From the IMG/VR virus record IMGVR_UViG_2872164251_000008: 16,911 bases of DNA; one strand, 5' to 3'. How positions within the stretch are numbered: the first letter of the stretch is position 1; the number at the start of each line of letters is the position of its first letter. Position numbers and translations under genes: made by a program. The stretch comes from a virus. Taxonomy: Duplodnaviria; Heunggongvirae; Uroviricota; Caudoviricetes. Shown here piece by piece: positions 1,538 to 2,008 of this stretch. The notes beneath the pieces are model-generated. The model did not search any database, was not told the origin of the DNA, and saw only the letters and a program-made list of their open reading frames with translations.

Positions 1538-1561
1538 ATTGACTACACCATTAACTACACC
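1538..1561. repeat. tandem 12-bp direct repeat ATTGACTACACC / ATTAACTACACC
   Basis: Two adjacent 12-mers, 11/12 identical, read directly from the sequence at 1538-1549 and 1550-1561. Confidence 0.6.
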
Positions 1562-1578
1562 GTTCGGTGCACTGTATG

Positions 1579-1604
1579 AAACAACGTGGAACAAATAGAC
1601 ACAA
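1579..1604. promoter_or_regulatory. three (A/G)AACAA-like hexamers at exact 10-bp phasing (AAACAA 1579, GAACAA 1589, ACACAA 1599); about 35 bp is similar to the element at 9884-9909
   Basis: Direct reading. The core AACAACGTGGAACAA is identical to 9886-9900. Confidence 0.5.
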
Positions 1605-1954
1605 GAAATATACAGGCGGGTAATCTTTCCAGGGGGAAGCGCACCAATTCATGAGGGGCGTTAATGTCGATATGGGGATCCCCATAACGGGGCTACCGGA
1701 TTTTTTTTCCGGTTAACCTTTAATCAGGCTGGTGGGTTTTACATACCCTTGATCACCGTAATGATGATCCAGATGTGCACCTTTTCCACCAATGGCGGAA
1801 AAGCTCCAACCGTAACGATGATCGCTATGGTTGCCTCGATGGTCTGCGTGGTCATTATGACCGTTCAGCCAGTGACCTTAATCAGAATTTTTCGCTAAAA
1901 AATGACGTTGGCCACGTCATCCGGAAAGCACAAAATCACGTCGATTTTTAATGA

Positions 1955-2008
1955 ACGGTTAAACCGTCTTTTTGTCACGGTGTGTCACTGGTTGTCACTC
2001 TCCGTCAC
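1955..2008. repeat. palindrome ACGGTT-A-AACCGT followed by four TGTCAC/CGTCAC hexamers at exact 10-bp phasing (1973, 1983, 1993, 2003); candidate recombinase/accessory-protein binding array near the island junction
   Basis: Direct reading of 1955-1967 and 1973-2008. Confidence 0.45.

Follow-up and report, generated by a model that had tools for sequence, protein, structure and literature searches.

Attachment-site arm and optional phased GTCAC array at the phoQ end of a capsid-forming phage-inducible chromosomal island of Escherichia coli

The window analysed here is a stretch of 16,911 nucleotides recorded in IMG/VR as a virus of the Caudoviricetes (IMGVR_UViG_2872164251_000008). It opens with a chromosomal flank, phoQ (1-1461, plus strand), recognised from the list of open reading frames and from relatives in which the gene is annotated as phoQ. 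All of the island genes that follow lie on the minus strand. These include a tyrosine integrase of 409 aa with an N-terminal arm-binding domain (15682-16911; Pfam PF13356 and PF00589), AlpA (15089-15277) and a D5_N-type primase identified by Pfam (11367-13115). The window ends at the int start codon, and the int-proximal arm lies just outside it. Pfam matches within the island comprise the integrase, the D5_N primase, capsid, portal, HNH, TerS and TerL; the capsid is of the HK97 type, protease and portal genes are also present, and terL is interrupted by IS1. The last island gene, which always precedes the terminal region, encodes a 93-aa protein of phrog_1561 (2258-2539, minus strand). Its AlphaFold model is all-helical with a pLDDT of 69; it had no match in the PDB by Foldseek at E<1 and carries no family annotation. 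A species-wide genome scan with this protein as the query led to a single locus.

The island was found to carry int, alpA, a replication gene with an adjacent iteron origin (GGGTAGAnAG, 11130-11360), a capsid-packaging module and a dedicated att site, and to be devoid of tail and lysis genes, as is characteristic of phage-inducible chromosomal islands (PICIs) and of their capsid-forming kind (cf-PICIs). The window is therefore phoQ followed by a cf-PICI. The prototype of the cf-PICIs is EcCIEDL933 (bioRxiv 10.1101/2022.09.08.507074), and Sp7 of the O157 strain Sakai is listed as the same element in the supplement of an earlier study (PMC6092414). The integrase of the window is 100% identical to that of Sakai Sp7 (ECs_1574), which occupies the same site, as are the small terminase and the packaging module. 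The two islands differ in that Sakai encodes a larger replication protein, whereas the window has the D5_N-type primase and IS1 in terL; the IS1-terL junction of the window had no match in any complete E. coli genome. The far end of the island was read from relatives, with Sakai Sp7 used for this purpose on account of its identical integrase.

The initial annotation had held that the junction between island and chromosome could not be placed from this sequence. The empty site of K-12, the far ends of related islands and a published core together place it at 1460-1469. In K-12, phoQ and roxA are separated by 75 bp, the phoQ stop codon being followed by AAATATGCCCATACTTC; the K-12 attB is AAATATGCCC, and the window departs from K-12 right after AAATATGTCC. 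The segment 1538-2008 is island DNA and is absent from this empty site. Alignment to the island-free region downstream of phoQ, which had been proposed as a check, together with the far end in relatives, did recover a direct-repeat core, AAATATGTCC. This 10-mer (attL core, 1460-1469, plus strand) is repeated at both island ends in L004 and in Sakai (L144), and in relatives at the phoQ site its far copy lies between int and roxA. The phoQ stop codon, TAA (1459-1461), overlaps the core. The published att core of EcCICFT073 at ycfD-phoQ is GGACATATTT (PMC6092414), the reverse complement of AAATATGTCC.

When attP was reconstructed, a predicted 7-bp overlap, TATGTCC (1463-1469, plus strand), was found between inverted core-type sites TGATAAAA and TTTTATCA; the window has TTTTACC at 1470-1476. 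Joining the two ends of relatives gives an attP core of TTGATAAAA, TATGTCC and TTTTATCA in direct succession, and the junction of an excised circle would read CACTAATTGATAAAATATGTCC followed immediately by TTTTACCACTACATC. With the core at 1460-1469, the repeat-rich region 1538-2008 starts 69 bp inside the island.

All four sets of repeats that the initial annotation had described within this region are present where it placed them and lie far beyond chance expectation, with some corrections of detail. The tandem pair of 12-mers consists of ATTGACTACACC (1538-1549) and ATTAACTACACC (1550-1561), both on the plus strand; it is a genuine pair, but the second copy carries one mismatch. The pair, which can be written as ATT[G/A]ACTACACC twice over, had no match in 200 shuffles. 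A degenerate third copy, ACTACATC, lies at 1477-1484. Between the core and the tandem pair lies an exact IHF consensus site, AATCAATGACTTG (WATCAANNNNTTR; 1484-1496, minus strand), which is one of three matches to the consensus in the window against 0.78 expected. Its central CATTGATT is conserved in the arms of phoQ- and tqsA-type islands. Further to the right, a perfect 14-bp palindrome, ATGGGGATCCCCAT, lies at 1672-1685. The 12-mers are 69-92 bp from the core, and a second set of repeats, with the motif ACAA, is 109-145 bp from it.

The two arms were compared using relatives, and the phoQ-site islands examined were L004, CFT073, CE10 and Sakai. The 12-mer pair is found on both arms in all of these islands, including Sakai Sp7 with its 100% identical Int. 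The copy on the other arm has the same orientation and stands 22 bp ahead of the int start codon (L004, L008, L010 and L144). EcCICFT073 and EcCIEDL933 (Sakai Sp7) resemble the window in site, in the core GGACATATTT and in the 12-mer pairs on both arms, with Int proteins 97-100% identical to that of the window. Islands at tqsA, in which Int is 92% identical overall and differs at 19 of the first 95 residues, carry A[AG]TGACTACACC twice on both arms. At clpS, where the first 95 residues of Int are 80% identical to those of the window, the ACTACACC pair is again found on both arms. The integrases of islands at ileY (tRNA-Ile) and proL (tRNA-Pro) are unrelated to that of the window (~25% identity), and these islands carry pairs of AGGATACC and CGTATAACYAAA, respectively, each on both arms. 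The ACTACACC pair, with variants at its 5' side, is therefore common to three related integrases, and two unrelated integrases are accompanied by unrelated pairs. A blind search for tandem 8-mers occurring at two places per island returned only the arm pairs and the replication-origin iterons.

The arm-binding domain of Int was assigned to Arm-DNA-bind_3 (PF13356; residues 8-95, E=5e-18). Because the pairs occur on both arms and change with the integrase type, and because Int has an arm-binding domain and the arm an IHF consensus, the layout follows the plan of the lambda attP with the 12-mers in the place of arm-type sites. Comparison among islands favours a reading of the 12-mers as predicted integrase arm-type sites of the P' arm. 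The ~230 bases that follow phoQ are a recombination arm of the ordinary sort, belonging to a phage satellite island of known kind. Thus, the proposal that 1538-2008 is an att arm region holds for its left third, the 12-mers and ACAA repeats at 69-145 bp from the core, which occur on both arms and of which the pair varies with the integrase; it fails for the palindrome and the GTCAC repeats further right, since the same DNA stands beside unrelated integrases and the array is absent beside an identical one.

The attP of lambda is composed of core sites C and C', the IHF site H', arm-type sites P1, P2 and P'1-3, and the Xis sites X1 and X2. The island resembles it in the 7-bp overlap between inverted core-type sites, in tandem direct arm-type repeats on the far arm that are separated from the core by an IHF consensus, in arm-type repeats on both arms and an integrase with a separate N-terminal arm-binding domain, and in phased direct repeats for a small directionality factor, which are putative here. 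The motifs themselves are unrelated to those of lambda, and each arm of the island attP has a single tandem pair of predicted 12-bp sites. Its putative sites for a directionality factor also differ in lying on both arms and at two promoters. In addition, the island integrase belongs to the P4-like group (Arm-DNA-bind_3). Excision would join the arm at 1470-1694 to the int-proximal arm, which bears the same two motifs, and would produce a lambda-style attP. There, Int may span from arm to core sites across DNA bent by IHF, with directionality possibly supplied by AlpA.

Three phased decamers, GAAACAAcgt GGAACAAata GACACAAgaa (1578-1607, plus strand), make up the second set of repeats and are candidate AlpA sites of an activator/excisionase type. 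They had been described as three phased AACAA hexamers; the phasing at exactly 10 bp is correct, but the units are pentamers, AACAA at 1580 and 1590 and CACAA at 1600. The pattern MACAA-N5-MACAA-N5-MACAA, for which 0.00 occurrences were expected, was found seven times in the window, and the remaining matches fall at 9885-9909 and in a run at 15560-15624. The former is a three-unit block ~215 bp upstream of the capsid gene. The latter belongs to an eight-unit run of G[CG]AACAAnnn (15560-15634) between the int stop codon and alpA, upstream of alpA. In relatives, the other arm also carries a match to the decamers at 1578-1607. The distribution of ACAA repeats is the same in those relatives that share this AlpA, and the AlpA of the window is identical to that of the tqsA-site relatives. 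In islands of the clpS type, which have another AlpA allele, the decamers are CGAACAA on each of the two arms and CGAAC upstream of alpA.

In satellite phage P4, Vis acts at att and at promoters. The island shares with P4 the P4-like integrase and an AlpA/Vis-family protein that is a candidate for action at both kinds of site; its other genes are unrelated to those of P4. Like the sites of P4 Vis, the ACAA decamers probably serve the island protein, AlpA, in both transcription and excision, with the qualification that the motif travels with the whole int-alpA module, so sequence alone cannot tell Int from AlpA as its ligand. For EcCICFT073, it has been found that the alpA promoter is activated by AlpA itself, that overexpression of AlpA results in int-dependent excision and replication, and that int expression is unchanged by AlpA (PMC6092414), the last of these counting against the model. 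Term searches of selected PICI papers returned no AlpA operator and no description of the arm-type or AlpA sites.

The arm ends at a conserved border. The motif CCGG-A-T8-CCGG (1696-1712), with TTAA and TTAATCAGGCTGGTGGG to its right, marks the point at which homology to two islands with other integrases begins, and it was detected by regular expression in 17 of 19 islands. One of the two, a tRNA-Ile PICI (L007) with an unrelated integrase of 474 aa, is near-identical to the window from ACCGGATTTTTTTTCCGG (~1695) rightwards, is 100% identical over the stretch 1868-2080, and is unrelated to the left of ~1695. The tRNA-Pro island (L009) breaks at the same point. From these breaks it follows that 1470-1694 travels with the integrase and that the DNA to its right does not. 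In the islands at ileY and proL, a different sequence takes the place of the entire integrase-linked P' arm module of attL (1470 to approximately 1694), and the survey reveals a fixed border, CCGG-A-T8-CCGG, at which int/att modules are exchanged.

To the right of this border lies a conserved non-coding block (1713-1865) that is independent of the integrase and common to all island types. Three coding candidates within 1739-1965 were considered and rejected: a frame rich in His, a hydrophobic ORF of 38 aa and an ORF of 90 aa called by PGAP in L005. Every frame of 1739-1965 contains stop codons, none has an excess of synonymous changes, and no Pfam or PHROG match was obtained for this stretch. 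Within it, 1795-1965 has no coding signature in any frame and carries frameshifting indels between relatives. Rfam gave no match at E<=5 in 1400-2700 and none at the gathering score in the whole window, no tRNA was found, and 1470-2260 had no match in the phage database.

Beyond the conserved block is an optional cassette (1866-2012), which has no counterpart in Sakai Sp7, L002 or L006; in the alignment with Sakai Sp7, 1866-2204 of the window remains unaligned. The cassette contains an inverted repeat, ATGACGT-N5-ACGTCAT (1902-1920), and the palindrome ACGGTTAAACCGT (1955-1967), which is as initially reported and has 6-bp arms, a central A and an expected count of 0.03. The palindrome is followed by CTTTTTG, and the resulting hairpin with its T-run (1955-1973, plus strand) scored as terminator-like. 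Directly after it comes a phased, iteron-like array, TGTCACggtg TGTCACtggt TGTCACtctc CGTCAC (1973-2008, plus strand). It had been described as four TGTCAC hexamers at 10-bp spacing; the spacing is exact, but the units are three TGTCAC and one CGTCAC. Four GTCAC units at exactly 10-bp spacing (1974-2008) were matched in 0 of 200 shuffles. Palindrome and array lie ~490-540 bp from the core and occur once per island.

The cassette was found in 265 of 5426 complete E. coli genomes, compared with 1213 in which 1462-2300 is matched at least in part. Of 20 islands that were read from end to end, eight carry the array, with three to five units, and the other 12 do not. The array-bearing islands represent five att/integrase types, have either primase-type or RepA-type replication genes, and carry three kinds of packaging module, with both packaging types among them. 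In some of the 12 without the array the integrase, the small terminase or the 93-aa protein is nevertheless identical; the identical 93-aa protein is encoded by ten islands, three with the array and seven without. No association of the array with the integrase, replication gene, packaging module or allele of the 93-aa protein was found among the islands surveyed. Unlike the window, both prototypes, EcCICFT073 and EcCIEDL933, are without the GTCAC cassette. EcCIEDL933 has been induced, packaged and transferred (bioRxiv 10.1101/2022.09.08.507074). Since this element is transferable and the array is missing from its Sakai copy, the array is dispensable for integration, excision, replication and packaging.

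In a comparison of only five array haplotypes, 1 of 24 hexamer sites and 6 of 16 spacer sites are variable (Fisher p=0.011). This constraint on the hexamers over the spacers points to a sequence-specific ligand. On the pattern of conservation and distribution, the array is most likely a phased, iteron-like candidate protein-binding site for a factor that is not encoded by the core island genes, and this reading is ranked first. For the region as a whole, a composite structure has good support and is probably correct: an attL arm from 1460 to ~1694, followed from ~1695 by an integrase-independent terminal region with an optional GTCAC cassette. It is based directly on the observed junction, the modular boundary, the distribution of repeats over two arms, their covariation with the integrase, the presence or absence of the cassette, and the conservation of the hexamers; from these we infer which proteins bind and what the array does.

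Several other explanations of the array were weighed. That the whole of 1538-2008 is an att arm, with the GTCAC units and the palindrome as further integrase or excisionase sites, would fit the phased direct repeats typical of arm-type and excisionase sites, and the arm-type consensus of lambda Int contains GTCAC. The position of the array argues against this, as the 504 bp that separate it from the core here compare with ~230 bp in the tRNA-Pro island L009, and the other arm has no counterpart. Further, the array stands beside five integrase types, two of which are only ~25% identical to that of the window, with a 100% identical cassette in one of these, and it is missing beside identical or 99% identical integrases in Sakai Sp7 and CE10. 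We regard this as the least probable of the readings and as extremely improbable in its own right. Hardly more probable is a part in a packaging (cos/cosB) site for the small terminase of the island or of a helper. The array does lie just past the terminase genes, an unrelated high-GC phage lineage carries TGTCACCGTT arrays right after the terL stop codon, and the 10-mer ACCACCACCT is common to the window and the cosB side of EcCICFT073 cos1. However, Sakai Sp7, CE10 and L006 have an identical small terminase and no array, the islands that carry the array have packaging modules of three different kinds, and EcCICFT073 cos1 and cos2 both map upstream of the 93-aa gene. The lambda cosN, GGGCGGCGACCT, is absent from the window, with no match within two mismatches in or near the region, and term searches of selected cf-PICI papers did not locate a cf-PICI cos site. 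The array was also considered as the origin of the island itself and rejected, being found with both primase-type and RepA-type replication genes. In P4, a second block of repeats bound by the initiator, crr, is located apart from the origin; the GTCAC repeats differ from the island origin iterons GGGTAGAnAG, and the array is thus not a crr equivalent, nor an origin of this motif. The direct-repeat boxes of the host regulators PhoB, CreB and TorR and of the OmpR type were rejected for misfits in spacing or motif. An explanation at the level of RNA makes terminators or insulators of the palindrome and T-run and of the hairpin modules beside them. They would block read-through from the flanking chromosomal gene into the island, antisense to its operon, and the GTCAC units would be a by-product of slippage without a ligand, perhaps even functionless. 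Transcription of phoQ does run towards the island, two terminator-like elements were found on the plus strand (ACGGTTAAACCGT then CTTTTTG, and AGCGCAATTTTGCGCT then TTGCTTT), and a unit number of three to five is as expected from slippage. Yet two such matches compare with 1.3 expected by chance, their stems are short (5-6 bp), and folding of a single stretch, 1596-1745 outside the cassette, gave no RNA structure signal (z-scores of -0.4 and -0.9 for the two strands). Nor do terminators and slippage explain the exact 10-bp phasing and the conservation of hexamers over spacers, and we consider this account unlikely, if the strongest of those set against a bound array.

The most interesting alternative gives the array a specific partner. 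In this proposal the GTCAC units are decoy or hijack sites for the replisome organizer of common lambdoid prophages of E. coli, such that the satellite titrates, senses or borrows the initiator of its helper, whose own origin consists of phased GTCAC decamers. An IMG/VR scan returned at least 120 phased arrays of four GTCAC units, and 54 of the 120 listed lie inside homologues of the initiator of Escherichia phage Evi. In the Evi gene itself, four plus five [TA]GTCACG decamers precede AT-rich repeats, in the manner of an origin, and the PHROGs name for this family is 'replication initiation protein'. An Evi-type initiator gene is present in 2078 of 5426 E. coli genomes, and the first unit of the PICI, TTGTCACGGTG, matches the Evi unit, TTGTCACGGCG, at 10 of 11 positions. 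The constraint on the hexamers also counts in favour of this proposal. Plasmid-borne lambda iterons, together with oop, block lambda replication (PMC3349717), and this inhibition is a precedent for a decoy. Against it, the likeness to initiator repeats is limited to a motif of 5-7 bp, with no extended homology to any phage origin, and nearly all phage units continue with G after GTCAC, as against only two of the four units here. Compared with a replisome-organizer origin, the array agrees in motif and in the phase of its four to five decamers; it differs from the lambda O/ori and Evi types in being non-coding and away from the initiator gene, in having no adjacent AT-rich unwinding block, and in that homology stops at the repeat. 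Binding of an initiator to GTCAC is hypothetical, and most PICIs are without the array. On balance the proposal is quite improbable, and a wider form of it, in which the cassette is a bank of decoy sites for the initiators of helper or competitor phages, perhaps including the variable-stem palindromic modules to its right, is more doubtful still. These modules (2036-2262) were compared with lambda O iterons and set aside, as the likeness is loose, with 13 of 18 positions matching at best.

The preferred reading remains a phased candidate protein-binding array within an optional cassette, which is a minor item of the island and would matter only if it binds a helper-phage protein. In the improbable wider decoy reading, the GTCAC decamers would mimic the origin repeats of a replisome-organizer initiator found in prophages of 38% of E. 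coli genomes. If so, a satellite at high copy after induction would titrate or sense this initiator, which would constitute a new DNA-based form of satellite-phage interference or of helper sensing. The att site and the island family have already been published, and the anatomy of the arm with the putative AlpA sites is a modest addition to them. It gives E. coli PICIs an explicit attP anatomy, with a 7-bp overlap inside the core, an IHF site, integrase-specific 12-mers as a single tandem pair on either arm, and phased ACAA decamers that tie the att arms to the control regions of alpA and the capsid operon. The arm thereby offers directly testable candidate sites for Int and for AlpA, the master inducer.

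The CCGG-A-T8-CCGG motif, followed by TTAA...TTAATCAGGCTGGTGGG (window 1696-1712), was also found in the ileY-site island L007, the proL-site island L009 and the compared loci L133-L142, and the two elements together were kept in islands of five integrase types. The motif marks the exchange point of the int/att modules. On the integrase-linked side, the arm contained a perfect 14-bp palindrome, ATGGGGATCCCCAT, with an internal GATC site (1672-1685); islands of the clpS and ileY types have near-copies of this palindrome elsewhere in their arms. In its left half, the optional cassette carried the inverted repeat ATGACGT-TGGCC-ACGTCAT (1902-1920), which was kept in CE10 (L010), an island that has lost its GTCAC array.

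To the right of the array, five short hairpin modules with differing stems (GCGCA/TGCGC, CCTCA/TGAGG, CTGCGAAA/TTTCGTAG, CCTCA/TGAGG and AGCGCA/TGCGCT) occupied window 2036-2262, and most of them were followed by a conserved tail of approximately TTTCCGAAAATATCAnnnGGTTAGC. The number of modules differed among islands, from 2 to about 8 copies, and some loosely resembled the lambda O iterons. The island replication origin was located at 11130-11360, adjoining the primase gene, where an AT-rich stretch lies between GGGTAGA[CTG]AG iterons in both orientations, the same arrangement as in the published layout of a PICI origin.

The large terminase gene carried an IS1 copy (2627-3394, with its InsB ORF at 2642-3145) in its 3' end. 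The insertion generated a 9-bp target duplication and removed approximately the last 20-25 codons of the gene, a loss that may render this copy of the island defective in packaging. The IS1-large terminase junction had no match among the complete E. coli genomes of the collection.

Decamers of the att-arm motif, G[CG]AACAA in 10-bp phase, were also detected outside the arm. Eight units lay on the minus strand in the interval from the int stop codon to alpA (15560-15634), and the capsid gene was preceded, at a distance of about 215 bp, by three units on the plus strand (9885-9909). Both runs are candidate AlpA operators.

Phased GTCAC decamers were also present in other phages. In Escherichia phage Evi (L132, LR597642.1), two clusters, of four (3629-3664) and five units (3889-3934), lay inside the replication initiator gene, a type of gene carried by 38% of complete E. 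coli genomes. The second cluster was followed by AGATAAAGATACAGATAAAG repeats, with which it presumably forms the phage origin. In a high-GC phage lineage (L128 and IMG/VR contigs L013, L024, L045, L047, L081, L103, L107 and L125), 4-7 decamers of this type, TGTCACCGTT (3822-3857 in L128), began 2 bp past the large terminase stop codon, ahead of the portal gene. The site after the large terminase stop codon is a third recurrent context of phased GTCAC arrays.
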